Part shown: positions 9,290-41,887 of the stretch, piece after piece
How the letters are laid out: every line of letters starts with the position of its first letter
Numbering within the stretch: position 1 is the first letter of the stretch
From: Minisyncoccia bacterium
Lineage (GTDB): Bacteria > Patescibacteriota > Minisyncoccia > UBA6257 > 2-01-FULL-56-20
Assembly: GCA_050015515.1 (NCBI GenBank)
Contig: JBEKBG010000001.1
Location: forward strand, 6,028-70,027
Direction: 5' to 3'
DNA: 64,000 bases
Notes under the pieces: model-generated
What the model was told of the DNA's origin: nothing
The model's input: the letters and a program-made list of their open reading frames with translations, nothing else
Database searches by the model: none
Program-made: the position numbers and the translations under genes

Positions 9290-9344
9290 AAGAGAGTCTC
9301 CTTCGCTGACTCCATCCTACCCTAAAGATTAAATTCAAACAATG

Positions 9345-9416
9345 TGGGCGCACTAGGACTCGAACCTAGAACCGGACGTGTATAAGACGTCTGCTCTGCC
9401 ATTGAGCTATACGCCC
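9345..9416 (-). tRNA. tRNA-Ile (anticodon UAU)
   Basis: Manual cloverleaf of the reverse complement: GGGCGTA/TGCGCCC acceptor, GCTC/GAGC D-stem, GACGT-CTTATAC-ACGTC anticodon arm, CTAGG-TTCGAGT-CCTAG T-arm, discriminator A. No CCA encoded. Confidence 0.7.
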
Positions 9417-23768: not shown

Positions 23769-24539
23769 ATGCAAAAATTTGGTCAACATTTTTTAAAGAA
23801 CGCGATGGTCTTGGAAAAGATCGTGGACGCGCTCGCACTCGCGGACGGCGATTGCGTGATAGAGATCGGCCCGGGGCACGGCGAGCTCACCGCGCCGCTT
23901 ACACGCGCGGCGCGCGGAAAACGCTGCGAAATCTTTTGCATCGAAAAAGATCACGCGCTGGTCGGCGGGTTGGGACAATTCGCCGCGCGCGTGACCATCA
24001 TAGAAGGCGATGTATTAAAATTATTACCGGATATGGTAGCAACAAAAATCGTTGGCAACATCCCATACTACATCACCGGAAAATTATTACGCACCATTGG
24101 CGGACTCGAGCACAAACCGGAGCGTACGGTGCTGCTCATCCAAAAAGAGGTGGCGGAGCGGATCTGCGCCGCGCCGCCGGATATGAACCGGCTCGCGGCG
24201 AGCGTGCAGTTTTGGGCGGATGCAAAAATTGTCGCGCACGTGCCGCGCAGCGATTTTTCTCCGGCGCCGGACGTGGATTCGGCGGTGATCGTGCTCAACG
24301 CCGATCATCACGCCGCGCGCGATCTCGATCCGACACTCTATTATAGAGCGGTGCGCGCCATTTTTGCCCAACCCCGGAAAACGCTATTGAATAATCTCTT
24401 CGCGGCGGCAGGAAAAACCGTCAAAAAAAACGATGTCGGCGCGCGGATCGAAAAAATCGGCATCAATCCCGGCTCGCGGCCGCAAGACCTTAGCATCGAT
24501 CAAATCGTTTCCATCGCACATATGGGTTTATGGGGATAA
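23769..24539 (+). CDS. rsmA: 16S rRNA (adenine1518/1519-N6)-dimethyltransferase
   Basis: FGQHFL N-terminus and SAM-binding motifs. 256 aa. Confidence 0.9.
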   Translation: MQKFGQHFLKNAMVLEKIVDALALADGDCVIEIGPGHGELTAPLTRAARGKRCEIFCIEKDHALVGGLGQFAARVTIIEGDVLKLLPDMVATKIVGNIPYYITGKLLRTIGGLEHKPERTVLLIQKEVAERICAAPPDMNRLAASVQFWADAKIVAHVPRSDFSPAPDVDSAVIVLNADHHAARDLDPTLYYRAVRAIFAQPRKTLLNNLFAAAGKTVKKNDVGARIEKIGINPGSRPQDLSIDQIVSIAHMGLWG

Positions 24540-24592: not shown

Positions 24593-26842
24593 ATGATAGA
24601 TGTCAAGAAGCTGATTACGGGTTTTTTGATCTTGGCTGTCGCTGCGGTCTGTTCTGGGCTGATATTTTCGCTCGCGAACTTTTCATCGCCCGCGACAACC
24701 AATGCCGCCAGCGGAATAGCGATTGGCGCGGGCACCGCAGCCGCAGATAACGCCAACGCGTTCCTGCCCACCGAGGAACAGGTGCAGGAAACCGCCGCCG
24801 CGCTTGCGCCGGAACTCGCATCATCAACAATGCTCGTCAGCTCCACCGACCCGACCAACCTTACCGACGACCTCGCGGCAGAATTTGTGAACGGCGTCGT
24901 TGCCGCGAACCCCAACGGAGCGACCGGCACCGATACCGACGGCAATCCCACCTTCACCTCTCCCGATGTGAACGCGATCGCGGCGAACATCGCCGACAGT
25001 ACCACCACGCAGGCGCTGCAAATTCCTAACTGGGACACCGAGGTCGCGGCAATTCCCGTGACCGTCGTCGCCACCACGAGTGCGACAGCTCTTACCAACT
25101 ACGGCGATGCGGTCAATGGCATTTTAAACAGCCATCTTAACGCGCAAGTGCAAAGCATCGCGAGCGACCAAACCGATGGCGCAACCGCGAGCGAATTAAC
25201 GTATGTGCAGTCGCAGGTGCAAAGCGCGCTTCAAGATACTGCCTCACTAAAAACTCCTGCGCCTGCCGAGGCATATCAGAAAAGTTTATTAGCCAACCTC
25301 GTTTATGAAAAGAACATGATCCAGTTATATACCCTCGCCCAGACCGACCCGGTAAAAGCATCCCTGATCTTCAGTCAAGAAGATACAAAGTTTTCTGCCG
25401 TCCAACAAAATTTTGCGAACCAGGCGCAGGAGCTCACCAGTAATTACCTTTCTCTCGAGCAGGTTCCTCAAAAACCACAAAATGGAATATTACTCTCTTT
25501 TATTAACAATACATTCGGCGTTCCCGAAGCCCACGCACTTTTGCCAGTGTTCGACCCCGCGACGTGGGCCCTGATCATATCGAATGAATGGACAACTATT
25601 CAAACCCAGCTTGAAGGAATCCTTAAAAACATGCTCCTCCAAATCCTCAAGAACGTCCTCATCGCAATTATTCAGCAGAAAGTGCTGGCGTGGGTGCAGG
25701 GGAGCGGGGCGCCGCGATTTATCACCAACTGGGGAACGACGCTCATAAATGTGGCGCAGACAAATGCGCTGAACGCGCTTAATAAAGACATGACGTGCGG
25801 CGCATACTCCGCTTTTGTTCCACAGATCAACATTACCTTAAAAGCTTTTTATTCCCCTAGCGCCAATAATTGCGCAAATCAATTTCAGGCGGCGCTCGGC
25901 GCAAACACCTTCCAACAATTCTATAATAATTTTTCGAATGGGGGATTTGTTGCGTTTGGCGCAAGCACCCTTCCGAGCGGCAACCCTTATGGAGCGCAAT
26001 TTTTTGAAGCTCAGAAAACTGATATCTCTTATCACAATCAGCAGGCAGCCACCGCACTGCAAACACAGACCTCACAAGGATTCAAAGGTGACGCGGTATG
26101 TACCGACGGGAGCAATCCTAACGGAAACAGCACCGTATGCGAAAACCCCAATGGCACATACGATCCGCCCAATATAACCGGGGGAGCATGCCCTGCGGGC
26201 GACAAATCAACCACCGTCTCAAATGGCGGCCTATGCGAGGACGGCACACAACCAATCGTGCAAACGCCTGCGGCGGTCACCGGATTTACCGTTCAAACCA
26301 CGGCAGGTGGCAACGCGACCGTCGCCCAGGTCACCGCAGCGACCGATATCGTCGGCATTCTCAATTCTGTCATGAGTTCCATTGTGATGGGTCTGGCAAA
26401 CGCCGCAGTGAACGCGGCGGGGAAATTGGTGAATCAAACGCTTAGCTCTCCCTCTCTGGATTCCAATATCACCTCCGGTGCCAACCTTTCCGGCATCACT
26501 ACCTCTACTATTGCGAGCACCTCCGCCGCGATCAGCGGCACCCTTGCTTCAATCCCGCTCGCGTGCAATCCGTTGACGCAAACCATCCCGTCCGCATCGG
26601 CCAGCACGCCGACATCAACCGGACTCACGGCTACCAGCACCTCCCCGGTCTCGCTCTCCGCCGCCGGCGGTACGCTTGACGCAAACGACAATCCGCCTAC
26701 TTATAATTGGTCCGACTCCAACGGCGTCACCGGCACTGGCTCGTTCTTCTCCGACACATTCACTATCCCGGGAACGTATACCGTCACCCTCGGCGATTCG
26801 ACGGGCGATGCGCCAACAACATGCACCGTCATTCAACAATAA
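24593..26842 (+). CDS. large secreted/surface protein (749 aa), Ala/Thr/Asn/Gln/Ser-rich; first gene of the T4SS-like operon
   Basis: N-terminal signal/TM, low-complexity repetitive N-half, Cys-containing C-terminal region. Adhesin-like composition. Confidence 0.6.
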   Translation: MIDVKKLITGFLILAVAAVCSGLIFSLANFSSPATTNAASGIAIGAGTAAADNANAFLPTEEQVQETAAALAPELASSTMLVSSTDPTNLTDDLAAEFVNGVVAANPNGATGTDTDGNPTFTSPDVNAIAANIADSTTTQALQIPNWDTEVAAIPVTVVATTSATALTNYGDAVNGILNSHLNAQVQSIASDQTDGATASELTYVQSQVQSALQDTASLKTPAPAEAYQKSLLANLVYEKNMIQLYTLAQTDPVKASLIFSQEDTKFSAVQQNFANQAQELTSNYLSLEQVPQKPQNGILLSFINNTFGVPEAHALLPVFDPATWALIISNEWTTIQTQLEGILKNMLLQILKNVLIAIIQQKVLAWVQGSGAPRFITNWGTTLINVAQTNALNALNKDMTCGAYSAFVPQINITLKAFYSPSANNCANQFQAALGANTFQQFYNNFSNGGFVAFGASTLPSGNPYGAQFFEAQKTDISYHNQQAATALQTQTSQGFKGDAVCTDGSNPNGNSTVCENPNGTYDPPNITGGACPAGDKSTTVSNGGLCEDGTQPIVQTPAAVTGFTVQTTAGGNATVAQVTAATDIVGILNSVMSSIVMGLANAAVNAAGKLVNQTLSSPSLDSNITSGANLSGITTSTIASTSAAISGTLASIPLACNPLTQTIPSASASTPTSTGLTATSTSPVSLSAAGGTLDANDNPPTYNWSDSNGVTGTGSFFSDTFTIPGTYTVTLGDSTGDAPTTCTVIQQ

Positions 26843-26844
26843 CA

Positions 26845-29427
26845 ATGGCGCACAAGAACCACTACAAAAAAATATTCGTCGTCGTCGCGGCGCTGTTCGT
26901 GCTTTTCGCGCCGGTGGGAATAACGACGGTCGGGGGGACGCAAAATTCCACCTCTATTCCAGCGGCCGCGCCAACAACACGAGGAATCCTAATAAAATCA
27001 GCGCCGCCGTCTCCTTATTCTGCATTCCGTTTATCGTTCAATCTTAGCCTTGCGCAGGCGACTCCAACAGCGCCCACTACCGGCGCTGGGGCTGGCCAAA
27101 ATATTCCCGTCAATCCAAATTGGTACAGTTGTACCACGAATCTGGCAACGTGCGGTGTTTATTACGTAGCGCTTACCATAAATGGCGTTATGGGTCTTCT
27201 TGTTTCTCTTGGAGCTACTTTGGTTCGGTTGGGACTTCAACTTAACGATAATGTGTTTAATTCGCCCGCGGTCCAAACGGGATTTTCCGTTGCCCTTGCG
27301 ATCGCGAATCTTGGATTTGTGCTTGGCATTATTATTATCGCCATCGCTACCATTATCAGAAATCAAACCTATGGGATGAAACAGCTTCTTTGGAAGCTGG
27401 TGTTCATGGCCATCCTTGTAAATTTTGGTCTTGTTATCACTGCGCCGATCGTGGGCTTTGCGAGCAGTATGAGTAATTATTTTATCAACGCCACCAGTCC
27501 CTCTTCCGTCAGCATCGCCGGATATGAGGGATATGCCCAAACGATGATGTCCGCCTTCAACCCCCAGGCGCCGGCAGGGGCAGCTTCGGCGGGAACGGGG
27601 ACGCAAAGTTGGACTCCCGCCAGTGGATTTTGTTTAGGTCCTTGGAGCTATTTCAACAGCATCGCGGCCTGGTGCAATAAAAACAATCTACCGACACAGG
27701 ATCCTCCTGGAGTTTTTTGGCAACAGACAATGGCTATGGCTTTCGACATAGTTTTTTCTGCTCTTATCGTCTTTACCTTTTTTTGCCTCGCCATTCTCCT
27801 TCTTATCCGCTACGTTATGCTTGGCGGATTGCTCATCGTCCTTCCTCTTGCGTGGCTTACTTACATATTTCCAAAATTCGATAGTAGCTACAGTAAATGG
27901 TGGAATACTTTTATTAAATGGACATTCTTCCCGCCAATTGCACTTTTTTTCATCTATCTTGCGTTCATTACCGCCACAAATACCAATACTAGTGGAAGTG
28001 CGAGCGCCACCACTGCGGGTCAAACTTATATGACTCAAGCTGTCCAGCTTCCTTCTAACGCACAGACCGGAGTAGAAGCAGCACTGCAAACTCAAACTGG
28101 CACCACCCCGGGCCTTATTCAGTCGATGCTCGACGAAGTCCTTTTGGTAGGTCTCACTGTCATGGGGCTTATGTTCGCTCTTTCGCTTTCCGGAAAGGCG
28201 GGCTCGACGGTGGTAAATGGCGCGACGGCAGTTACTAAGGCGGCGGGAGGATATGTGGGGAAGAAAACCGGCAAAGCTGCAGCGCGAGTTTATCAAAAAG
28301 CAGGAGGGGGAGATCTTAATAAGAATATGCAACAAAGCAGAATTCCTGGCTTCTCGGCGATCGGCAGAGGTATGGCCAACTTGACCGAATCGGCAACCAA
28401 AAATCAGGTTGATGCCCAGCATAAAGCATTGGGGCTTGGCGCCATGGACGATGACCGGCTGCAAGCGGTAACCCAAGGGTTGCACGGGAAGGAAGCCCAG
28501 CTCGCGGCAGTGCAGGAATGGCAGAAGCGTGGAAAAGTGGACAAGATAGAAAGTATCGGCGGCGACAATTTCCAGACATGGCTCAAAAAGAACCAAGGGA
28601 CATTTAAAGATTATGGGCAGGGCAAGCTGCGTGGAGATGTTGATAACGCGATAATGTCGAATGAAGAGATACGGGAGATCGCAAGACAAAAAACCGCCGC
28701 AGCTCCAGCAGCGCGCGCCGCAGCTGAAGTGGTTGATGAAAAAGGGATTGTGGGCCCAGCAGGGGCAACGGTTCGCGCGAGTGATATGGTAAGCCGCGCA
28801 AATGAAGAGGCTAAGAAAGCGCAAGAGATTGTGGATCTTCGGGGAGCTGCTACGTTTATTCCTCATGGGGGAAGCATGGTCAGAGCCGGAGATCTTGTTA
28901 AAGAAGCCCAGGCGGCATCGGAATCTGCGAAGGATGCCATGGATAAAGCGCCAGATGATGCTCTTATTACTGATACGGAAGGCCGCTTAGGAGCAAAAGG
29001 AGAAAAGCAGAAAGCCGGGAAGCTTATGGAAGCCGCTTCTGAAAAATTCTGGGAAGGAAAAGACAAGGGCGATGCCGCAAAGACGCGCCCGAACGTCATA
29101 TTCGGAGATAAGCCAAGCCTCGGCTTTGATAAAGAGCAGCTTAATGAAATCGGGAAGGCGGTAGCCCATGGCGTAGTAGTGCAGGTACCTGGCGTCATGG
29201 GATCGTTAGCGGGCAAGACGGATAACTTGAAACAACTTACCATGCTTACGGAGGCCTACACGAAGAGCGTCCAAGAGGCGGAGAGGTCTAATAAGATATC
29301 AGCAACACAAGCAAAAGCGATGAACTCCGCAATTAAAAAAATGCTCGGGGGGAAACTGGCCTTCATGGGCGGATGGGAGCCAGGATCAGCCCCCACGCCA
29401 GCACCGACACCAACTCCTAAGCCTTAA
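26845..29427 (+). CDS. VirB6/TrbL-like polytopic membrane protein with long K/A/E-rich hydrophilic C-terminal domain
   Basis: ATG 26845 sits 2 nt after the upstream stop. About 6 TM helices across residues 130-420 (pattern typical of TrbL/VirB6), then ~430 aa hydrophilic tail ending in PTPAPTPTPKP. Confidence 0.5.
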   Translation: MAHKNHYKKIFVVVAALFVLFAPVGITTVGGTQNSTSIPAAAPTTRGILIKSAPPSPYSAFRLSFNLSLAQATPTAPTTGAGAGQNIPVNPNWYSCTTNLATCGVYYVALTINGVMGLLVSLGATLVRLGLQLNDNVFNSPAVQTGFSVALAIANLGFVLGIIIIAIATIIRNQTYGMKQLLWKLVFMAILVNFGLVITAPIVGFASSMSNYFINATSPSSVSIAGYEGYAQTMMSAFNPQAPAGAASAGTGTQSWTPASGFCLGPWSYFNSIAAWCNKNNLPTQDPPGVFWQQTMAMAFDIVFSALIVFTFFCLAILLLIRYVMLGGLLIVLPLAWLTYIFPKFDSSYSKWWNTFIKWTFFPPIALFFIYLAFITATNTNTSGSASATTAGQTYMTQAVQLPSNAQTGVEAALQTQTGTTPGLIQSMLDEVLLVGLTVMGLMFALSLSGKAGSTVVNGATAVTKAAGGYVGKKTGKAAARVYQKAGGGDLNKNMQQSRIPGFSAIGRGMANLTESATKNQVDAQHKALGLGAMDDDRLQAVTQGLHGKEAQLAAVQEWQKRGKVDKIESIGGDNFQTWLKKNQGTFKDYGQGKLRGDVDNAIMSNEEIREIARQKTAAAPAARAAAEVVDEKGIVGPAGATVRASDMVSRANEEAKKAQEIVDLRGAATFIPHGGSMVRAGDLVKEAQAASESAKDAMDKAPDDALITDTEGRLGAKGEKQKAGKLMEAASEKFWEGKDKGDAAKTRPNVIFGDKPSLGFDKEQLNEIGKAVAHGVVVQVPGVMGSLAGKTDNLKQLTMLTEAYTKSVQEAERSNKISATQAKAMNSAIKKMLGGKLAFMGGWEPGSAPTPAPTPTPKP

Positions 29428-29435
29428 ACCTCAAA

Positions 29436-30398
29436 ATGATTACCGTCTCACAACAACAAGCAGGCCAACGATGGGATATTATTACCCCGTCGCTTCGTGA
29501 AGCGCTTTTTTCCGACGTGAACGCCGACTTTGTATGGAATCTCTGCCAGAGCGAACATCTTCCCGAGGACAAATCCTATCAAGTTGCCGAATTCGCAGGA
29601 TATGTGCTTCTCGGATTTTTACATCCGGAAGATCTATCGGGAGAACTGGCCTCTTCATTAAATCTGCCCACACCGCTAGCAAAAACAATAAGCGACCAGA
29701 TCAACTCGAGGGTGTTTGCGCCGCTTCGAGCCGATATTGATAAAGTTTATTCCCCATTGAGCAGATTAGGAGATATTTCAATAGGGTCTGCGCCAAAAAT
29801 TCTCCAAGACATCGACGCCTCCCCAAAACACGATATCACACTAAGTAGTATCGCTCCATCAACCCCCAAACCCACAACCCTTTCCGACATCGGCTGGTCA
29901 AAACAACCGGCGATACAGCCAATCACGAGCGCCAAGACCAGCGCTCCAATACCAACTCCTCCAGCTCCGCCAAAACCCGCCGTTGAACCGGCGCCGATGA
30001 TGCTCCATGAGGACACGGTGTTCAAATCTGCGGAAAAAAATATGAGTTTTACGCTATCCAAGCCCGGAGACGCCGTCGAGATGAATATGAATCGCGGTGC
30101 GGTGGTGGTGCCTGCGCCAGCCCGTCCGGCGGTGTTAGAGTTCGGCGGCGCGACGGCAGCGGGCACGTCTGCTCCAAAACCGCCCGCACCCACATCGAGC
30201 ACGGCGCGCGCGCCGGGCTTTGGGTCTTCGCTCGCTTCCATGTCAACCACAAACACCGGCGCACGTAATGTAAGCCAGATCGTGCCGACGACATCAGTAC
30301 AAATCCCTAAGTCACCCACTTCGCCAATGCCGCCGCAGCCGCCACAAGCATCTCCCGCACCCCAGCCCAACAAGTCGATCGTAAAAGATTTCCTTTAA
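29436..30398 (+). CDS. hypothetical protein with Pro/Thr/Ser/Ala-rich C-terminal half
   Basis: No TM. PxP-rich linker. Operon context only. Confidence 0.5.
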   Translation: MITVSQQQAGQRWDIITPSLREALFSDVNADFVWNLCQSEHLPEDKSYQVAEFAGYVLLGFLHPEDLSGELASSLNLPTPLAKTISDQINSRVFAPLRADIDKVYSPLSRLGDISIGSAPKILQDIDASPKHDITLSSIAPSTPKPTTLSDIGWSKQPAIQPITSAKTSAPIPTPPAPPKPAVEPAPMMLHEDTVFKSAEKNMSFTLSKPGDAVEMNMNRGAVVVPAPARPAVLEFGGATAAGTSAPKPPAPTSSTARAPGFGSSLASMSTTNTGARNVSQIVPTTSVQIPKSPTSPMPPQPPQASPAPQPNKSIVKDFL

Positions 30399-30426: not shown

Positions 30427-31029
30427 ATGCAATATCAAGTTCCCCAATTCATCGAGACCGAAGACAAGGTTGTCGGACCGTTCTCGCTCCGACAATTCGC
30501 ATACGTGGGCGTCGCGGCGCTCATAAGCGGCGGCGCTTATTTTTTCCTGCAGACGTGGCTATTCCTTATCATCGCACTTGTGTTGGTGGGCGGATCGCTC
30601 GCGCTTTCGTTCGTAAAGATCAACGGCCGGTCGCTTATTAAAGTGGCCACCGCGGCCTTTTATTATTATTGGAAACCTCAGCTGTATGTGTGGAAACCGG
30701 ACCACCCCATGATCGCCCAGCAACCGCATGCGCCCGCGACAGCGAGGAAATTGCTTCCTGTTGCCGATAGTGCTCCCGAAGGCTTCCTCCATAAGATCTG
30801 GGGGAGCTCACAACACGCTCCCGCAGCCGTGAGGGCGTTGCCGCCCATCGCCGCGATCGCTTCCGGAGATTCCCTCCATAAGAGCTGGGGAAACCTGCAG
30901 ACCGGTACGCCGGAGACAAAAGAGATGTCCGACCGCCAGTTTTTGGAGAAAAAAATGATGGAGCGTTACCAGATATTCCGGCGGTTGAGCGGCGACCGTG
31001 CGGCGGCACGGCGCGTGGATTATCGTTAG
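30427..31029 (+). CDS. VirB3/PrgI-like small membrane protein
   Basis: About 100-aa N-terminal module with two TM helices (FAYVGVAALISGGAYFF..LFLIIALVLVGGSLAL) immediately upstream of VirB4, as in Gram-positive prgI-prgJ. Confidence 0.45.
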   Translation: MQYQVPQFIETEDKVVGPFSLRQFAYVGVAALISGGAYFFLQTWLFLIIALVLVGGSLALSFVKINGRSLIKVATAAFYYYWKPQLYVWKPDHPMIAQQPHAPATARKLLPVADSAPEGFLHKIWGSSQHAPAAVRALPPIAAIASGDSLHKSWGNLQTGTPETKEMSDRQFLEKKMMERYQIFRRLSGDRAAARRVDYR

Positions 31030-31032
31030 AAA

Positions 31033-31734
31033 TTGTGCGAAAATAGAATCATGGCAATCCCACAAATGCAGGATGCGGGGAGTTCCCTGGACCTTGTCGA
31101 CATCAAGGAGATCAAACAGAACACGGTCGTCGTAAAGGACGGCAGCTTCCGGCAGGTCATCATGGTAGGGGGTGTCAACTTTTCATTGAAGTCCGAAACG
31201 GAGCAGAATATCATCACGCAAGCGTATCAGACGTTTCTGAACGGTATTGATTTCCCCCTACAGATCCTTATCCACTCCCGCAAGGTGAATATCGATAAGT
31301 ATATCGAGGCGCTGGCTGCCCGGAAGGAGATAGAACAATCTCCCATCCTGCAAAACCAGATCGACGAATACAGCAAGTTCGTGCAGGGATTTGTGGAAAA
31401 GAACGCAATTATGGAAAAGATCTTTTTGGTGGTCGTCTCGTTTTATCCCGTTTCGGTGCTCCCCAACGCAAAAAAAGTTTCTGTGGCGATCCCATTTTTT
31501 GGGAAAAAGAAAATAAGTCCGGCGGAAACAGCCCAGCGCACGGAGGAAGCGGAAAAGATGTTTGGCGAGAACCTTGCGCAGTTAAGCCAACGCACGACCC
31601 AGGTGACGGGGGGGCTTCTGAACATCGGCCTTGAGACGACGGTGCTCAACGATGAACAGCTCATTGAGCTCTTCTATAATTTTTACAATCCACAGACCAT
31701 CGAACATAAAAAAACGCCCGTGGCGCGCGAATGA
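31033..31734 (+). CDS. VirB4-family ATPase, N-terminal domain (ends at an in-frame TGA)
   Basis: Same reading frame as the 31747 ORF. Only TGA 31732-31734 plus 4 codons separate them. Combined length ~815 aa matches VirB4/TrbE. Confidence 0.55.
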   Translation: MCENRIMAIPQMQDAGSSLDLVDIKEIKQNTVVVKDGSFRQVIMVGGVNFSLKSETEQNIITQAYQTFLNGIDFPLQILIHSRKVNIDKYIEALAARKEIEQSPILQNQIDEYSKFVQGFVEKNAIMEKIFLVVVSFYPVSVLPNAKKVSVAIPFFGKKKISPAETAQRTEEAEKMFGENLAQLSQRTTQVTGGLLNIGLETTVLNDEQLIELFYNFYNPQTIEHKKTPVARE

Positions 31735-31746
31735 TATCATTACCCC

Positions 31747-33483
31747 ATGCCAGACCAGCCACAAGAAAATAATTTCAGCGACGTAAAGAAGATCATCGCG
31801 CCGGCGGGCGCGCAGGTGTTCCCCAACTACCTGAAGATCGGCGACAAGCTCGCAAAGACGTTCTTTGTGTTCTCCTATCCGCGCTACCTTTCCACAGGCT
31901 GGTTCGAACCGCTCATCAACCTGCCGAACCTTTTTGACATCTCGATCTTCATCAACCCGATCGACACCGGGAGCGCGCTCAAGAATCTCCGTAAAAAAGC
32001 CGGACAGCTGGAGTCGCAAATGAACGATGAGCAGGACAAGGGCCTCGTGCGAAATCCGGTGCTGGAAACCGCGATCAACGATGTTGAGGGCCTGCGTGAT
32101 TCATTGCAACAGTCCGAGGAAAAGCTTTTCGACACCGGCGTATATATTACGGTCTACGCGGATACCATGGACGAGCTCGCACGGCTGGAAAGCAAGCTCG
32201 TCACGATGATGGAAGCAAAGCTGATCTACCTTAAGCCCGCGCTCTTTGAGCAGCTTGAGGGATTGTCTTCCATCCTGCCGATCAATAACGACAAGCTCCA
32301 GATCTACTCGCCGATGAACACCGGCCCGATCTCATCATTTTTTCCATTTGTCTCCGAAGATCTCTCCTCCAATGAGGGGATCATGTATGGCATCAACCTG
32401 CATAACAGCAACCTGGTGATCTTCGACCGTTTCTCGTTGGAAAACGCAAATGAAGTGGTGTTCGCCAAATCCGGCTCCGGCAAATCGTACACCACCAAGC
32501 TGGAGATCCTGCGCTCGCTCATGGCGGGTATTGACATGGTGATCGTGATCGACCCGGAAAACGAGTATGACCGCCTCGCAAAGACGTTCGGCGGGAGCAT
32601 GTTCAACATCTCTTTGTCTTCGCACGAGCACATCAATCCGTTCGACGTACCGCCGATCCCGGAGGGAGAAACACCGTCGGATGTTCTGCGATCGCATATC
32701 GTGAACATCGCAAGCCTGTTGAAGCTCATGCTCGGCAAGCTCTCGCCGGAGGAAGACGCGCTGCTCGATCGCGCGATCACGGAAACGTACGCCTCCCGCG
32801 AGATCGTCGCCGATACGGATTTTATCGGCAAAGAACCGCCGCTCTTGGGCGACCTGGAAACGGTACTGCGGAATCTGGAAGGCGGGCGCGGCCTTGCGGA
32901 AAAGCTCTATAAATACACCAAGGGAAGTTTTGCGGGCTTCTTGAACCAGCCAACCAATATCGATGTCAATAATCGCCTTATTGTGTTCTCCATCCGCGAC
33001 CTGGAAGAAGAGCTCCGCCCGCTCGGTATGTTCGTTGTGCTCAACTACATCTGGAACCTCATCCGCGCCAAGCTCGCCAAGCGATTATTGTTCATTGATG
33101 AGGCGTGGATCATGATGCAGAACGAAGACAGCGCGACGTTCTTGTTCGGCCTCGTCAAGCGCGCGCGCAAATATTATCTCGGCGTCACGACGATCACGCA
33201 GGATGTGGAAGACTTCTTGCGGTCGCCTTACGGGCGCCCGATCGTCACCAACTCTTCGCTGCAATTGCTGCTCAAGCAGGCGCCCGCCACGATCGATATT
33301 GTCGCCAAAGCGTTCGATCTCACCGAAGCGGAAAAGAACTTCTTGCTCGGCGCGGAGATCGGCACCGGCATCTTCTTCGCCGGCAAGCGCCACGTGGCCA
33401 TCCAGATCGTCCCGTCGTATTACGAAGATCAAATCATCACGACGAATCCCGAGCAAATCCTGGAGGAAAAAAGTGAGCTATAA
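31747..33483 (+). CDS. VirB4/TrbE/PrgJ-family ATPase, C-terminal ATPase domain
   Basis: Walker A AKSGSGKSYTTK, Walker B LLFIDEAW (DEAW is typical of VirB4), GVTTITQD motif. Confidence 0.8.
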   Translation: MPDQPQENNFSDVKKIIAPAGAQVFPNYLKIGDKLAKTFFVFSYPRYLSTGWFEPLINLPNLFDISIFINPIDTGSALKNLRKKAGQLESQMNDEQDKGLVRNPVLETAINDVEGLRDSLQQSEEKLFDTGVYITVYADTMDELARLESKLVTMMEAKLIYLKPALFEQLEGLSSILPINNDKLQIYSPMNTGPISSFFPFVSEDLSSNEGIMYGINLHNSNLVIFDRFSLENANEVVFAKSGSGKSYTTKLEILRSLMAGIDMVIVIDPENEYDRLAKTFGGSMFNISLSSHEHINPFDVPPIPEGETPSDVLRSHIVNIASLLKLMLGKLSPEEDALLDRAITETYASREIVADTDFIGKEPPLLGDLETVLRNLEGGRGLAEKLYKYTKGSFAGFLNQPTNIDVNNRLIVFSIRDLEEELRPLGMFVVLNYIWNLIRAKLAKRLLFIDEAWIMMQNEDSATFLFGLVKRARKYYLGVTTITQDVEDFLRSPYGRPIVTNSSLQLLLKQAPATIDIVAKAFDLTEAEKNFLLGAEIGTGIFFAGKRHVAIQIVPSYYEDQIITTNPEQILEEKSEL

Positions 33484-33494
33484 TTTCTTCACAT

Positions 33495-34298
33495 ATGGAT
33501 GAAGGAGAAAAACCGTTCCCGATAGAATTCATCGTCATCCTTTTGATCGTCGCTGTGGCGAACGACGTCGCGGAAATTTTTTTCGACCTCCTTGACTTCA
33601 CCGGCGTAGGCGTCGCCGGAGAAGCGATCATGGAGCCGGCAAATTTTGTTTTGGACTTTTTCTTTACCGGAATTTTTTGGTGGAAGGTTGGCCCGGGAGG
33701 CGGCACTATAACGCAATACATCGGAGATATTCTCGAACCATTTCTTATTCCGGGGAGAACAATCTCGGTGGGGCTCGGTATGTGGATAGCGAACCATCCC
33801 AATTCCGCGATAGGGGAAGCGGCGAATACTGCGGTCTCGCTTGAAAGCGGCAACGTCGCGGGTGCGACAGGTGAAGTTGAGGGAATCGCGGGAACTGCGG
33901 AAAAAGAAGCGGCTGATGCCGAGAAGAAACTTCAAGGCGGGAGTGCGAGTGGTACCGGCGAAGGCGGTGAAGGCGGATTAGAAGCTGCTAAAGAAGGCCA
34001 AACTGCCGAATCGAAATCTCCTGAAGCCCAAAGCGGCGGAGAAAAAGAAAACGCCCCCGAAGAAGACGTATTTAAAAATCCCTACGAAAATCCCGTGGGA
34101 ACTGCCGGAGAAGAGCTTAACGAACCACCCGAGGAAGAATTCCACGAAGGGGAAGGATTTAAGCCAAAAGAAGAACCGCAGGAAAACGAGATCCAATCAC
34201 AGAAAGTCGTTGATATTGCGAGCCGCCGGCCGCCATCGCCAAAAAATGAGAACCGCGCAGGTGATGCCGACGCCGAAGACCTCGCAGAAGCGGCATAG
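33495..34298 (+). CDS. membrane protein with highly acidic Gly/Glu-rich C-terminal tail
   Basis: Two to three N-terminal TM helices. C-terminal ~150 aa E/G/A/K-rich and disordered. Confidence 0.5.
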   Translation: MDEGEKPFPIEFIVILLIVAVANDVAEIFFDLLDFTGVGVAGEAIMEPANFVLDFFFTGIFWWKVGPGGGTITQYIGDILEPFLIPGRTISVGLGMWIANHPNSAIGEAANTAVSLESGNVAGATGEVEGIAGTAEKEAADAEKKLQGGSASGTGEGGEGGLEAAKEGQTAESKSPEAQSGGEKENAPEEDVFKNPYENPVGTAGEELNEPPEEEFHEGEGFKPKEEPQENEIQSQKVVDIASRRPPSPKNENRAGDADAEDLAEAA

Positions 34299-34333: not shown

Positions 34334-35083
34334 TTGTTATACTTAAGGAAAGATATGTTCTCGCGAATTGTGCTTAAAAAGATGGCGCTTGTGGGTTTTA
34401 TCGCGATTGCCCTCGTAGCCGGTGGCACCTTTCTTTTAGTAACATCAATAGCTCACGCACAGACGGCATCATCGCCCACATTTCTTATCACGTGGAAAAC
34501 GACGGGGAGCTATATCCCATCGTTTTATATCGGTAAGGCCTTGTCAACCTATGGGTCGAAGATTACCGCGTCGCTCGAGTTGGTCTCGCCGCAGGGAAAG
34601 ATCCTTGATCTCAGCGGGCAGACGATCTATTGGTACGTGAATGACACCTTAGTGGGCGGTGGAGTGGGTGTTCAACAAGTAACATTCCCGCCTGTCGGTG
34701 ACGCACCGAATACCGCCAACCTACGCGTGACGCTCCCGAACTATAATGGCGCATATCTTATTCACGCGATCAATATCCCTATGGTTCTACCGGAGGCGGT
34801 GATCTACGCGCCATACCCTAATGGGCAGTTTACACAGAATCCGCTGACGGTGCAGGCTATCCCGTATTTCTTTAACATCGCCGATCCTTCCGGCCTTTCC
34901 TACGCGTGGTCGGTAGATGACCAAGCCGGCTCCAACGCCGAAAATCCGGAGACGGCGCAGGTCACGTTGCCGCAGGGCACGCAGTCGGGAACCGGCGTGA
35001 ACGCATCGCTCAGCGTTGAGAATCCCAACGACTCCACCGTCGCCACCGCGAGCGCCAACTTAACCTACGAAAGCCAGCTATGA
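34334..35083 (+). CDS. bitopic secreted protein (topology compatible with VirB8-like, not established)
   Basis: Short cytoplasmic tail, one TM, beta-rich ~200-aa extracytoplasmic domain. Confidence 0.45.
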   Translation: MLYLRKDMFSRIVLKKMALVGFIAIALVAGGTFLLVTSIAHAQTASSPTFLITWKTTGSYIPSFYIGKALSTYGSKITASLELVSPQGKILDLSGQTIYWYVNDTLVGGGVGVQQVTFPPVGDAPNTANLRVTLPNYNGAYLIHAINIPMVLPEAVIYAPYPNGQFTQNPLTVQAIPYFFNIADPSGLSYAWSVDDQAGSNAENPETAQVTLPQGTQSGTGVNASLSVENPNDSTVATASANLTYESQL

Positions 35084-35805
35084 AGAAATTTTTTTATAGC
35101 TTAGCTGCGATTGTCTCAAATTTCTTCCTTTTGTCCGCCGCGCATGCGGTGACGATTAGTATGGCCATCCCGGGCGGCCCAAACGCTTATCCCACCAGCA
35201 CCGGTCCTGGCGGTTTTGTCGCCAACTTCTACCAGTTTGCACTGATGATCGGCGGGGTTCTTGCTTTCGGGGTTATTGTGTATGGAGGAGTGCGATATAT
35301 GGCATCCGCAGGCAATCCTTCGGGGCAAAGCGATGCGAAAGAATGGATAGAGGCGGCTCTGTTGGGATTATTACTACTTGTGGGCGCATATTTTATCCTT
35401 AATGTGGTGAATCCACAGCTGACGAATCTTGTGCCGCCAACGCTCACGCCGGTAAATATCCAAACGCCGGCCGCCGCCACAACACAAACGGAGATACAAA
35501 CCGCTATCGCTGCTTGTGTCGCTGCTTGTCAAGATGCAAGCTGTACCGCTGCATGTAATGCCCAGGGATCATCTTTGCAATCGGCGTTCAGCGGAGCATG
35601 TAGCGCGAACACTTGTCCATCAGGCCAGACGTGTCAAAATGACGGAAGTGGAGGGCATATGTGCCTTAATATCAACCCCTTATCAACAAACCCTCTGGGC
35701 TCTACACCTGCAGGAGATTACTCAAGCTGTGCGCAAGCCAACTGCGCATCGGGCAAAAACTGCGTAGTAGATCTCAGTAATAGCAAATACTACACCTGCA
35801 TGTAA
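35080..35805 (+). CDS. VirB2/TrbC-like pilin with Cys-rich C-terminal extension
   Basis: Signal peptide (AHA|V), two long hydrophobic helices separated by a short polar loop (…VRYMASAGNPSGQSDAKEW…), then a T/Q-rich linker and 12 Cys in the last ~95 aa. Confidence 0.45.
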   Translation: MKKFFYSLAAIVSNFFLLSAAHAVTISMAIPGGPNAYPTSTGPGGFVANFYQFALMIGGVLAFGVIVYGGVRYMASAGNPSGQSDAKEWIEAALLGLLLLVGAYFILNVVNPQLTNLVPPTLTPVNIQTPAAATTQTEIQTAIAACVAACQDASCTAACNAQGSSLQSAFSGACSANTCPSGQTCQNDGSGGHMCLNINPLSTNPLGSTPAGDYSSCAQANCASGKNCVVDLSNSKYYTCM

Positions 35806-35828: not shown

Positions 35829-37154
35829 ATGAAACGCTATCTCTATATTATAATCGGCATCATCGTCGCGGCGGCCATCGTAATATTGGTTCTTTTCCTG
35901 ATAAAAAATAATGCGGCGAGCACGACGATCACCACCTCGGGGACGACCGGCGGTTCGCTTCCGGCGGCGGGTACGCAAGGGAGTGGTGGATCGGGAGTAA
36001 CGAGCAGCGTTGCCACACTCGGCCTCTCGCCGATAGCAAGTGGCACCAGTGCGAACACAAACAACCAAACGGTTGTGCAAAACTTTGGCGTGCTTTCACA
36101 AAGCCCCGCTTTGGATTATTTCGTTGACGCTCAAAATAATATCACCGCCATCCAACCGACGGGCGCCATTATCACAATAAAAAACGGCCAGACGACGACA
36201 GTAAATTCCTCGACGATTGACGGCATCATCTCCGCAAGCTTTTCCTATGATGGCAAAAAGATCGTTGTGAATTATGGCGATCCGTCCGATCCGCGGGCGG
36301 GCGTTTATGATGTTGCGACGAACGCGTGGACGGCACTGCCGCAGGGAATTCTCTCGCCCCAATGGTCTCCGGCCAATAATTACCAGATCGCATACCTTGC
36401 GGTACCGAGCGCCGGAAAGCTTACGCTCGCTACCGTTAACGCCGCGAATTTAAAAACTACGCCGACGACCCTCCTTACGCTTAACGCGAACGATCTCGCG
36501 CTCCAATGGCCCACGGCGAGCGAATTTATCCTTTCCGATAAGCCGACTTCGCAGAACGCAGGGTCGGTGTGGGTTTATAATTCGTCGGCTGGAACACTGG
36601 AGCCCCTCATATATGAGGTTCCTGGCGCGGAGGGAATATGGAGTCATAATGCCGCCATTCCTTATGGCCTGACCTTCTTTAATAATCCGTCCGGCCAAGG
36701 GGGGAATACATTACAGCTACAGGTTTTTTCTGGAAATTTGCCGACTCAGCCGCTCGTTTTCTCAACCTTGCCTTCCAAGTGCGCTTTTAACACCGAACTC
36801 ATGCCGGTTGCGACATCTACCGCTGGCGCGGCGACGTCCACGACGGCTTCGTCCACCGCAAAGATATCGGCGAAAGTCGCCGCAACTTCCACGCCGTACC
36901 TCGCGCTCTATTGCGGCATTCCACGCAGCTCGAGCGGGTTCTCCTCCGCACACCTGCCGGACGCCTATAATACGATGGCGCTCTTTACCTCCGACGATAT
37001 TTATAAAATAAACACCGCGACGGGCGCGGAACAGGTGCTTTGGAGCGATGCCACACAGAACATGGACGTCTCTGATGTAAAGTTCTTCAATGATGCGTTG
37101 TTCTTTGTAAACCGCTATGATCAAAAACTGTACGGTCTTACTTTTAGTAATTAA
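35829..37154 (+). CDS. secreted Thr/Ser/Gly/Ala-rich protein (beta-propeller-like?), last gene of the operon
   Basis: N-terminal TM/signal and a long beta-rich domain. No motif. Confidence 0.5.
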   Translation: MKRYLYIIIGIIVAAAIVILVLFLIKNNAASTTITTSGTTGGSLPAAGTQGSGGSGVTSSVATLGLSPIASGTSANTNNQTVVQNFGVLSQSPALDYFVDAQNNITAIQPTGAIITIKNGQTTTVNSSTIDGIISASFSYDGKKIVVNYGDPSDPRAGVYDVATNAWTALPQGILSPQWSPANNYQIAYLAVPSAGKLTLATVNAANLKTTPTTLLTLNANDLALQWPTASEFILSDKPTSQNAGSVWVYNSSAGTLEPLIYEVPGAEGIWSHNAAIPYGLTFFNNPSGQGGNTLQLQVFSGNLPTQPLVFSTLPSKCAFNTELMPVATSTAGAATSTTASSTAKISAKVAATSTPYLALYCGIPRSSSGFSSAHLPDAYNTMALFTSDDIYKINTATGAEQVLWSDATQNMDVSDVKFFNDALFFVNRYDQKLYGLTFSN

Positions 37155-39286: not shown

Positions 39287-40642
39287 ATGGATCTTGAACA
39301 AATGTGGCAGTCGACGTTGGGGGAGATGGAAGTTCAACTGACGAAGGCGCATTTTGCAACGTGGTTAAAAAATAGCCGACCGATCGATAAAAAGGATGAT
39401 ACGCTCTTTGTCGCCCTTCCAAGCAACTTCGCGAAGACATGGGTGGAGGAAAAGTATCAGAAAAACATCATCGGCATCGTCCGGAATATGGACACGTCGG
39501 TTAAAAAGATCGAGTTTGTAGTGGGAAATAAGAATATTTCTTTCAATAAGGCGCCGTCCGAACAAACCACCACACAACAAAATGCCGCCGCCGAGCTGGA
39601 CTTCAATAAGACCGACCCGGAAACGGGGCTCAATCCAAAATACACCCTCGCATCGTTCGTTGTTGGACCCTCAAATGAGCTTGCCTTTGCCGCCGCCACC
39701 GCGATCACCGAAGGGCCGGGCAAAAAATATAATCCTTTTTTCATCTACGGCGGCGTCGGCCTCGGGAAGACCCATCTCATTCAAGCTATCGGCAACGAAC
39801 TCATGGTAAAATATAAGGGTAAAGTAAAAACAAAATATGTTTCTTCGGAACAGTTCACGCGCGACATCGTGTGGGGACTACGCAATGATCGCATCGAAAG
39901 TGTAAAGAAAAAATACCGCGACGTTGACGTGCTGATTATCGACGATATTCAGTTTATCGGCGGAAAGGAAAAAACAGAGGAAGAATTCTTCCATACCTTT
40001 AACGCGCTCTATGAGAATGATAAGCAGATCATTATCTCGTCCGATCGTCCGCCACAGTCGTTGCCAACGCTGGAGGAGCGGCTTCGATCGCGTTTTGAAG
40101 GCGGCCTCATTGCCGATGTTTCCTATCCGGAATACGAGATGCGGGTGGCGATCGTCCGCAGCAAGCTCCAGGAGATGAATCGGCAGCTCCCTGACGAAGT
40201 GATCGACCTCATTGCAAAGCGGCTCCGAAAGAACATCCGTGAGTTAGAGGGGGTTCTTAAAAAGATCATATTCCACGAGGAGCGAAAACAGACGGTGATT
40301 ACCGTAAAGGCGGCCGAGGAGATTATCGAGAAGGTGACCCAGAACCTCTCTAGGCGTGTCACTGATGCCCAAATTTTGAAGTCTGTGGCGGAATTCTTTA
40401 ATATCGCCGTGGAAGACCTCATCAGCCATAATCGCCGGAAAGAAGTGGTGGAGCCGCGCCAGATCGCTATCTATCTTCTTCGGGATATCTCGGAGCTTTC
40501 CTATCCGTATATTGGTGAGAAGCTGGGGAGAGACCACACCACCGCTATCCACTCCTATGAAAAGATCAACCGTGAAATCAACAGGAATCCCGCACTTAAC
40601 CAAAAGATATTAACCATAAAGGATATGATTTATAAGAGTTAA
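39287..40642 (+). CDS. dnaA: chromosomal replication initiator protein DnaA
   Basis: AAA+ Walker A GGVGLGKTHL, sensor motifs, C-terminal DNA-binding domain. Confidence 0.95.
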   Translation: MDLEQMWQSTLGEMEVQLTKAHFATWLKNSRPIDKKDDTLFVALPSNFAKTWVEEKYQKNIIGIVRNMDTSVKKIEFVVGNKNISFNKAPSEQTTTQQNAAAELDFNKTDPETGLNPKYTLASFVVGPSNELAFAAATAITEGPGKKYNPFFIYGGVGLGKTHLIQAIGNELMVKYKGKVKTKYVSSEQFTRDIVWGLRNDRIESVKKKYRDVDVLIIDDIQFIGGKEKTEEEFFHTFNALYENDKQIIISSDRPPQSLPTLEERLRSRFEGGLIADVSYPEYEMRVAIVRSKLQEMNRQLPDEVIDLIAKRLRKNIRELEGVLKKIIFHEERKQTVITVKAAEEIIEKVTQNLSRRVTDAQILKSVAEFFNIAVEDLISHNRRKEVVEPRQIAIYLLRDISELSYPYIGEKLGRDHTTAIHSYEKINREINRNPALNQKILTIKDMIYKS

Positions 40643-40774: not shown

Positions 40775-41887
40775 ATGAAATTTATCGCAATCCGTTCAAA
40801 TATCAAAGATGCGGTTTCAACCATTGAGAAGGCGGTTGGAGAAAACACCAATCTACCAATATTAAAAAACATTTTTATTGAGGCGGAGAACAACACTATC
40901 ATTTTTTCCGCCACCAACTTGGAGATTGCGATCACCCACCGCGTTGCGGGAAAGGTGATCGAGGATGGGAAGATAACCGTGCCTCTCGCGCTTTTTTCTA
41001 GCCTTATTGGGAACATCCAGAGCGACCGGTTGAATTTTGAGAAGAAGGAAAATAACATGGAGATCGCGACGGATAATTACAGCGCGGTGATCAATGGGAT
41101 GTCGCCGGAAGATTTTCCCCTCACGCCGAAAATAAAAAACACCGAGAGCTATATTGAGATCAAAGGCGCGTTTCTCAAGGAGGCGATCCAGCAGGTGACG
41201 GTCGCGTCGCAGTATTCCGATCTGCGGCCGGAGTTGAACAGCGTTCTATTTAATTTTTCATTGGAAAGTTTGGTGCTCGCGTCGACTGATGGATTTCGTT
41301 TGGCGGAGCGATCGATCCCCTCGAATCTTTTTGTGATAAAAAAGAAGGAGCCGTTCAAGATGCTTATTCCTCTGCGAACGGCCATTGAGGTGGCGCGCAT
41401 CATGCGCGATGACGAAGTGGTGCGTATCCATCAGGATGAAAACCAGGTATTGTTTAAAACCGACCAGACGGAACTGATTTCCCGGTTGGTGGAAGGCGCG
41501 TTCCCGGATTATTCCGCGATCGTGCCGCACGAGTTCGCCGCGGAGATCGTGGTAAATCGCGATGAATTCTTGAACGCGATAAAGCTCGCTGGCGTATTCG
41601 GCCAGAAGAACAGCGAGGTTAAAATAAGGATCCATCACAACAAAAAAGCGATCGAGATCAGCTCCGCGGACCAGGCGCTTGGCGAGAACAACAACGTCCT
41701 CCCGGCGAAGATACAAGGAGACATCCCGGAAGTGTTTTTTAATTGGCGCTATCTCTCCGATCCAATGAAGGGCATTAAAGCGGAGGAGGTGTTTCTCGGG
41801 CTGCAGGAAGACGCAGGACCGGCACTGATCCGTTCAGTGAGCGATCAATCGTATTTCTATGTGTTGAAGCCGATTCTCAAACCCTAG
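40775..41887 (+). CDS. dnaN: DNA polymerase III beta sliding clamp
   Basis: Three-domain beta-clamp, 370 aa, immediately after dnaA. Confidence 0.92.
   Translation: MKFIAIRSNIKDAVSTIEKAVGENTNLPILKNIFIEAENNTIIFSATNLEIAITHRVAGKVIEDGKITVPLALFSSLIGNIQSDRLNFEKKENNMEIATDNYSAVINGMSPEDFPLTPKIKNTESYIEIKGAFLKEAIQQVTVASQYSDLRPELNSVLFNFSLESLVLASTDGFRLAERSIPSNLFVIKKKEPFKMLIPLRTAIEVARIMRDDEVVRIHQDENQVLFKTDQTELISRLVEGAFPDYSAIVPHEFAAEIVVNRDEFLNAIKLAGVFGQKNSEVKIRIHHNKKAIEISSADQALGENNNVLPAKIQGDIPEVFFNWRYLSDPMKGIKAEEVFLGLQEDAGPALIRSVSDQSYFYVLKPILKP

Follow-up and report, generated by a model that had tools for sequence, protein, structure and literature searches.

The 64,000-nucleotide (nt) stretch of DNA from a Minisyncoccia bacterium analyzed here (assembly GCA_050015515.1, contig JBEKBG010000001.1, positions 6,028 to 70,027; referred to as the window) contains a locus at 31033-33483 that a first, sequence-only reading described as a VirB4 homolog interrupted by a single in-frame TGA. 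The word interrupted is misleading, since the locus holds two long-established genes. The best explanation, to which a probability of about 0.92 is given, is that a TrsD-like gene and the gene for a VirB4 ATPase, separate and co-transcribed, belong to a chromosomal type IV secretion system (T4SS) of Patescibacteria, with TGA acting as an ordinary stop codon. This explanation is carried by the conservation of the split among relatives, by the complementary coverage of VirB4 profiles by the two products, by the VirB4-like fold of the TrsD-like protein and the purifying selection on its gene, and by a T4SS context in which the pair is tightly linked to a PrgI gene. The junction consists of the following elements:

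31051..31734, forward strand: TrsD-like gene, 227 amino acids (aa), a stand-alone homolog of the N-terminal portion of VirB4 (profiles, homolog lengths and fold).
31735..31746, forward strand: intergenic spacer of 12 nt, TATCATTACCCC (direct reading).
31747..33483, forward strand: VirB4-type T4SS ATPase, 578 aa, without the first ~185-250 profile positions of a full-length VirB4 (profiles and motifs).

Profile matches and motifs show that the downstream protein is a genuine ATPase of the VirB4 type. It matches the NCBIfam model conju_CD1110 (NF045971) with 399.8 bits against a cutoff of 325 (E = 2.3e-119, positions 186-733 of 752) and TIGR00929 VirB4_CagE at positions 250-724 of 792, and Pfam finds P-loop_TraG, AAA_10 and DUF87 in it. 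Walker A (AKSGSGKS, aa 240-247, 32464-32487) and Walker B (LLFIDE, aa 447-452, 33085-33102) are intact. The protein is not the single polypeptide of ~750-800 aa by which VirB4 is recognized, and the missing part lies on the separate TrsD-like gene. The 227-aa product of that gene matches NCBIfam VirB4_plasma (E = 4e-11, profile positions 104-215), TIGR00929 (4e-6, positions 19-192) and the CD1110 profile (positions 6-110); these matches are weak yet consistent and fall on N-terminal positions that are absent from the ATPase. The VirB4 N-domain similarity proposed for the upstream piece from the sequence alone is thus found by profile searches as well. Precomputed Pfam annotation places PF26593 TraC-like on proteins identical and near-identical to it, and the TrsD/TraD model NF041427 is matched over aa 18-91 only (E = 1.1e-6). 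The layout is that of TrsD/TraD, a small stand-alone homolog of the VirB4 N-terminus directly 5' of the VirB4 gene. Taken together, the two proteins cover the VirB4 profiles in a complementary and colinear manner, with no part duplicated. Pfam TraC_F_IV is divided between them (TrsD-like protein 26-181, ATPase 275-373), which places the gene boundary, as far as the profiles tell, within the region that Pfam models as one TraC N-terminal region and not at the edge of the ATPase domain. The earlier division into an N-terminal domain and an ATPase domain was therefore roughly right, except that the break lies inside the TraC N-terminal region and Walker A comes only at residue 240 of the ATPase.

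Fold comparison points in the same direction. When an AlphaFold2 model of the TrsD-like protein is compared with the PDB, its top 14 matches are all TrwK/VirB4 chains of R388, with probabilities of 0.92-1.00. Several points weigh against the explanation as two genes of this kind. The score against NF041427 is 28.6 bits where the cutoff is 200, below curated TrsD/TraD membership, and the link of the 227-aa protein to that family is best read as remote homology. The structural model is of moderate confidence (mean predicted local distance difference test score, pLDDT, 65.7) and its fold matches are modest (template modeling scores 0.34-0.47, E from 1e-3 to 3e-2). A profile search with the alignment of the TrsD-like protein against PDB sequences gave no sequence-level match to a solved structure; its sole hit, Utp18 (E = 0.34), was set aside as chance. 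The ratio of nonsynonymous to synonymous substitutions (dN/dS) of the TrsD-like gene against relatives, 0.08-0.19, indicates purifying selection, with values that are rough because dS is saturated.

The open reading frames (ORFs) themselves are as they were first described: the upstream one, as called mechanically, runs from TTG 31033 to the TGA at 31732-31734, four sense codons (TAT CAT TAC CCC, 31735-31746) follow, and the downstream one begins at ATG 31747 and closes, after 578 codons, at TAA 33481-33483. Both are in one frame (31747 - 31033 = 714 = 3 x 238), which direct reading confirms. The upstream gene almost certainly begins at ATG 31051 and encodes 227 aa, because all homologs align from MAxPxKQDAG; the combined length of the two products is then 227 + 578 = 805 aa, in place of the ~815 aa given before. 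No Shine-Dalgarno motif was found in the 12-nt spacer before ATG 31747, which is uninformative because only 8 of the 49 genes in the window are preceded by such a motif. Among the 49 non-overlapping ORFs of at least 150 aa in the window, 26 end in TAA, 13 in TAG and 10 in TGA, the last including the T2SSE/GspE-like gene at 47366..49075. A genetic code with sense UGA, already judged unlikely from the sequence, is ruled out by these ten TGA-terminated ORFs, and TGA is a real stop in this genome.

A search of 5.8 billion proteins returned 628 homologs of the TrsD-like protein, and the best 120 of them (66-100% identity) are all 204-238 aa long. An exhaustive HMMER search of 1.84 billion representatives gave 1845 matches at E ≤ 1e-3, of which the top 150 comprise one fusion of ~800 aa and otherwise proteins of 107-452 aa. 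The closest proteins and loci come from Candidatus Paceibacterota/Patescibacteria metagenome-assembled genomes (MAGs), with identities up to 98-100%. In Patescibacteria, a relative is encoded by at least 596 of the species genomes covered by a GTDB scan, from which 80 loci were fetched, 78 of them holding both genes. A stop codon separates the genes in all 78 loci (TAA in 38, TAG in 29, TGA in 11); no locus is fused, and no sense codon stands at the position of the TGA. The ATPase lies in frame 0, +1 or +2 relative to the TrsD-like gene in 22, 30 and 26 loci, respectively, as expected of a random distribution (chi-square p = 0.54), and the spacers range from an 8-nt overlap to a few hundred nt, most of them being very short. 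TGA, TATCATTACCCC and ATG are identical in three independent assemblies at 98% (JGI 3300037093, ENA WOOD18-1 and Logan SRR6960546), and relatives at 85, 79 and 77% identity have TAA at the homologous codon with spacers of 11, 10 and 8 nt. The common frame of the two genes is best regarded, on these comparisons, as a coincidence that befalls one in three pairs of adjacent same-strand genes and is peculiar to the source lineage. Two observations were made along the way. Three homologs of the TrsD-like protein (P0244, P0270 and P0210) carry long low-complexity extensions rich in P, Q, T and N, either N-terminal (~190-230 aa) or C-terminal (~200 aa), which suggests lineage-specific additions to a TrsD-like module. 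In the long-read MAG chromosome OY970354.1 (locus L006, 4681-5243), the ATPase gene 3' of the TrsD-like gene matches only in fragments and has no ATG in the open frame; possible causes are errors (frameshifts or indels) and genuine decay there.

Such comparisons bear directly on the idea that the stop arose by recent nonsense mutation or by an error in sequencing or assembly, or that the T4SS is decaying and pseudogenized; only the in-frame appearance of the two ORFs speaks for it. Against it stand the same junction in three independent assemblies from different projects, a stop at the corresponding position in no fewer than 78 species-level genomes, purifying selection on the TrsD-like gene and intact Walker motifs. 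Homologous genes are moreover reported as essential in Southlakia epibionticum ML1, where T4SS genes are reported to be required for epibiotic growth and a TrsD homolog adjoining virB4 is listed as essential, a result credited to Wang et al. (Cell, 2023) (Quinonero-Coronel et al., Microb Genom 2025, PMC12102498). Error or decay is thus vanishingly unlikely.

The single fusion among the top 150 representatives, P0130, is a 797-aa TrsD-VirB4 protein encoded in MAG GCA_964615945.1 (locus L081, 544-2937). It aligns colinearly over the junction, and its TIGR00929 match is unbroken from profile position 18 to 725. Its junction (L081, 1204-1215) reads CGC CAA GGG ATG, which looks like a TAA to CAA change in a layout of stop, 3 nt and ATG that is frequent among relatives. 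P0130 may be a true re-fusion, or it may stem from an error in the MAG. It supports the functional equivalence of split and fused forms.

A fused form could also be thought to arise in the source organism by programmed UGA readthrough, through selenocysteine or other recoding, so that both the 227-aa protein and a fused VirB4 of ~810 aa would be made. The two ORFs do share a frame with a stop-free 12-nt spacer, identical in the three 98% relatives, and the existence of P0130 indicates that a fused protein would probably be functional. However, the frame is not conserved (the genes stand in different frames in 56 of 78 related loci), nor is the identity of the stop (TAA or TAG in 67 of 78), and the nearest non-identical relatives have TAA and spacers that differ in length. 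No RNA structure above shuffles was found 3' of the TGA, the fold of 31720-31820 having a minimum free energy of -23.7 kcal/mol against a shuffle mean of -25.8 (z = +0.69); the look for a SECIS-like or otherwise readthrough-promoting context suggested by the sequence-only reading therefore came back negative, and the window contains no selenocysteine tRNA (tRNA-Sec). TGA is moreover the regular terminator of a fifth or so of the window's genes (10 of 49). The base that follows the TGA at 31732-31734 is U in the transcript, and a U after the stop is reported to make a strong termination context in E. coli (Poole, Brown and Tate 1995). Readthrough as a conserved mechanism is largely refuted on this evidence, and in any form it is highly improbable. 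Error, recent nonsense mutation, pseudogenization and conserved readthrough are all rejected because of the comparative data on stops, spacers, frames, assemblies and selection. Of the three possibilities that the first reading left standing, it is the genuine two-polypeptide VirB4 that the stop in 78 of 78 related loci strongly supports. A weaker variant, that occasional UGA misreading across the in-frame 12-nt spacer yields a small fraction of fused VirB4 beside the two separate proteins, that in-frame split loci (~28% of relatives) are one point mutation away from re-fusion, as the junction of P0130 suggests, and that split and fused forms interconvert repeatedly, is very unlikely.

In the explanation by two separate genes, the counterpart here of an ancestral full-length VirB4 (monoderm, MPF-FATA type) is a pair of polypeptides, with the 227-aa TrsD-like protein corresponding to the first part of the VirB4 N-terminal region and the 578-aa protein to the remainder of that region together with the Walker A/B ATPase domain. 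Translation of the ATPase would start independently at ATG 31747, and the tight 12-nt spacing could allow translational coupling and hence roughly matched amounts of both proteins. The TrsD-like protein may then act as a detached N-terminal module of VirB4. At the membrane it would join the ATPase and the PrgI/VirB3-like protein through non-covalent contacts and stand in for the N-terminal region that is covalently attached in TrwK/VirB4 of R388. It could also be hypothesized that the TrsD-like protein descends from the VirB4 N-terminus and is now an independent accessory or regulatory T4SS factor, with the ATPase working without an N-terminal module. TrsD homologs of Gracilibacteria, which mostly do not adjoin virB4 (PMC12102498), would fit such a role, and the low-complexity extensions of P0244, P0270 and P0210 suggest added roles. 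Set against this are the complementary profile positions with no duplicated part, the near-universal adjacency of the two genes with very tight or overlapping spacing in most loci, the colinear alignment of the natural fusion, and the order PrgI, TrsD-like, VirB4, which mirrors VirB3, VirB4 N-region and VirB4 C-region. An independent factor is considered very unlikely, and the detached module of a two-gene VirB4 is preferred.

The split is also met outside Patescibacteria (CPR bacteria), in plasmids of the cultured monoderms Miltoncostaea and Pontibacillus. A Miltoncostaea oceani plasmid carries a PrgI gene followed by genes for a protein of 337 aa and then for a DUF87 ATPase of 661 aa, and a Pontibacillus plasmid has a small 116-aa hypothetical protein, a 274-aa protein and a 621-aa VirB4 of the CD1110 family; the small upstream gene is annotated as PrgI family only in Miltoncostaea and not in Pontibacillus. 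In the Rubrobacter marinus plasmid NZ_CP045122.1 (locus L090, 3659-7693), the TrsD-like region lies inside a single ATP-binding protein of 1344 aa, which appears to be a fused protein of VirB4 type and of much larger size; its host is a cultured actinobacterium.

The VirB4 gene is accompanied by other T4SS components, with PrgI directly 5' and a T4SS pilin gene 3', and the whole cluster lies between a KsgA-like gene and dnaA/dnaN:

23769-24539: KsgA-like (RrnaAD) gene (Pfam).
26821..29427, forward strand: polytopic membrane protein of 868 aa with ~7 hydrophobic segments, candidate VirB6-like component.
30427..31029, forward strand: PrgI-family (VirB3-like) small membrane protein, 200 aa (PF12666 PrgI, E = 7.8e-9, 36.4 bits vs cutoff 27).
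35080..35805, forward strand: VirB2-like T4SS pilin gene (PF18895 T4SS_pilin, 4.8e-8, 33.4 bits vs cutoff 26.6; three hydrophobic segments).
39287-40642, forward strand: dnaA (Pfam Bac_DnaA, 1.6e-67).
40775-41887, forward strand: dnaN (Pfam DNA_pol3_beta domains).

The PrgI-family protein has one strong hydrophobic segment at aa 45-63, and a PrgI gene also precedes the TrsD/VirB4 pair in relatives L081-L087 and in the Miltoncostaea plasmid. The 868-aa protein is tentatively taken as VirB6-like, no profile confirming it, and a gene of more than 800 aa occupies the same position 5' of PrgI in relatives L083 and L085. Pfam and NCBIfam gave no match for the flanking ORFs at 24593-26842, 26821-29427, 29436-30398, 33495-34298, 34355-35083 and 35829-37154; several of these six have an N-terminal hydrophobic segment, and genes of similar size are found at the same positions in relatives L082-L087. 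As a matter of context only, dnaA and dnaN put the cluster beside the replication origin, and the same neighborhood is found in L081. Housekeeping genes surround it (FtsH, H+-PPase, NusA, TyrRS, UvrD, PBP1 and CTP synthase). Of the ORFs of the window, ~20 larger ones were scanned, comprising ten large ORFs and the neighbors of the cluster, and in these no relaxase or VirD4 coupling-protein domain was detected; the T4SS is presumably not conjugative.

This arrangement is already known and ubiquitous in Patescibacteria. TrsD, described as a remote homolog of the VirB4 N-terminus, is the most abundant T4SS component in the phylum, with 2,272 homologs, 1,664 of which adjoin virB4, and the Patescibacteria VirB4 proteins form a clade related to the monoderm MPF-FATA class (PMC12102498). 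They are accompanied by PrgI/VirB3 and VirB2-like pilins, and the clusters are often near dnaA, dnaN and ksgA, with relaxases mostly absent (PMC12102498). The same paper gives TrsD no function; for TrsD it cites Guglielmini et al. 2014 (PMC4027160), in whose main text the word TrsD does not occur, and the statement on its homology is taken here from PMC12102498 only. The present locus agrees with that description in the order PrgI, TrsD-like, VirB4 and VirB2-like pilin 3', in its chromosomal position near KsgA, dnaA and dnaN, and in having TrsD as a separate gene adjoining virB4; it differs in nothing substantive, only the shared frame with a 12-nt spacer being peculiar to it. With TrsD/TraD of the pGO1 subclass of monoderm conjugative plasmids (MPF-FATA) it shares the layout of a small remote homolog of the VirB4 N-terminus directly 5' of a shortened VirB4, whereas the match to the curated TrsD model is weak here, the ATPase fits the CD1110-type model best and not the pGO1-type one, and the system is chromosomal instead of plasmid-borne. 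Compared with full-length VirB4 (TrwK of R388, PDB 7O42, 7O43 and 8RTB; TIGR00929), both proteins jointly cover the profile colinearly, Walker A/B are kept, and the model of the TrsD-like protein matches TrwK chains only. TrwK, in contrast, consists of one chain and belongs to a diderm system that has an outer-membrane core complex, and the system here is of monoderm type with two polypeptides.

The locus is due to be annotated as two genes, TrsD-like and virB4; labels such as pseudogene, recoding event or assembly error should not be applied to it. It is one more ordinary example, of little importance beyond its correct annotation, of a T4SS that is itself biologically important. Complementary coverage and the rare natural fusion nevertheless lead to a testable hypothesis, according to which TrsD would be the N-terminal module of VirB4 in detached form and would link PrgI/VirB3 to the ATPase.

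Elsewhere in the window, a tRNA-Ile with anticodon TAT (UAU) is found at 9344-9416 on the reverse strand. Such a tRNA is uncommon in bacteria, in which AUA is usually decoded by a lysidine-modified CAU tRNA. A tRNA-Ser(CGA) at 52238-52313 on the forward strand lies within the 5' end of the mechanically called 248-aa ORF 52201-52947, and the start of this ORF, or the entire ORF, is probably spurious.

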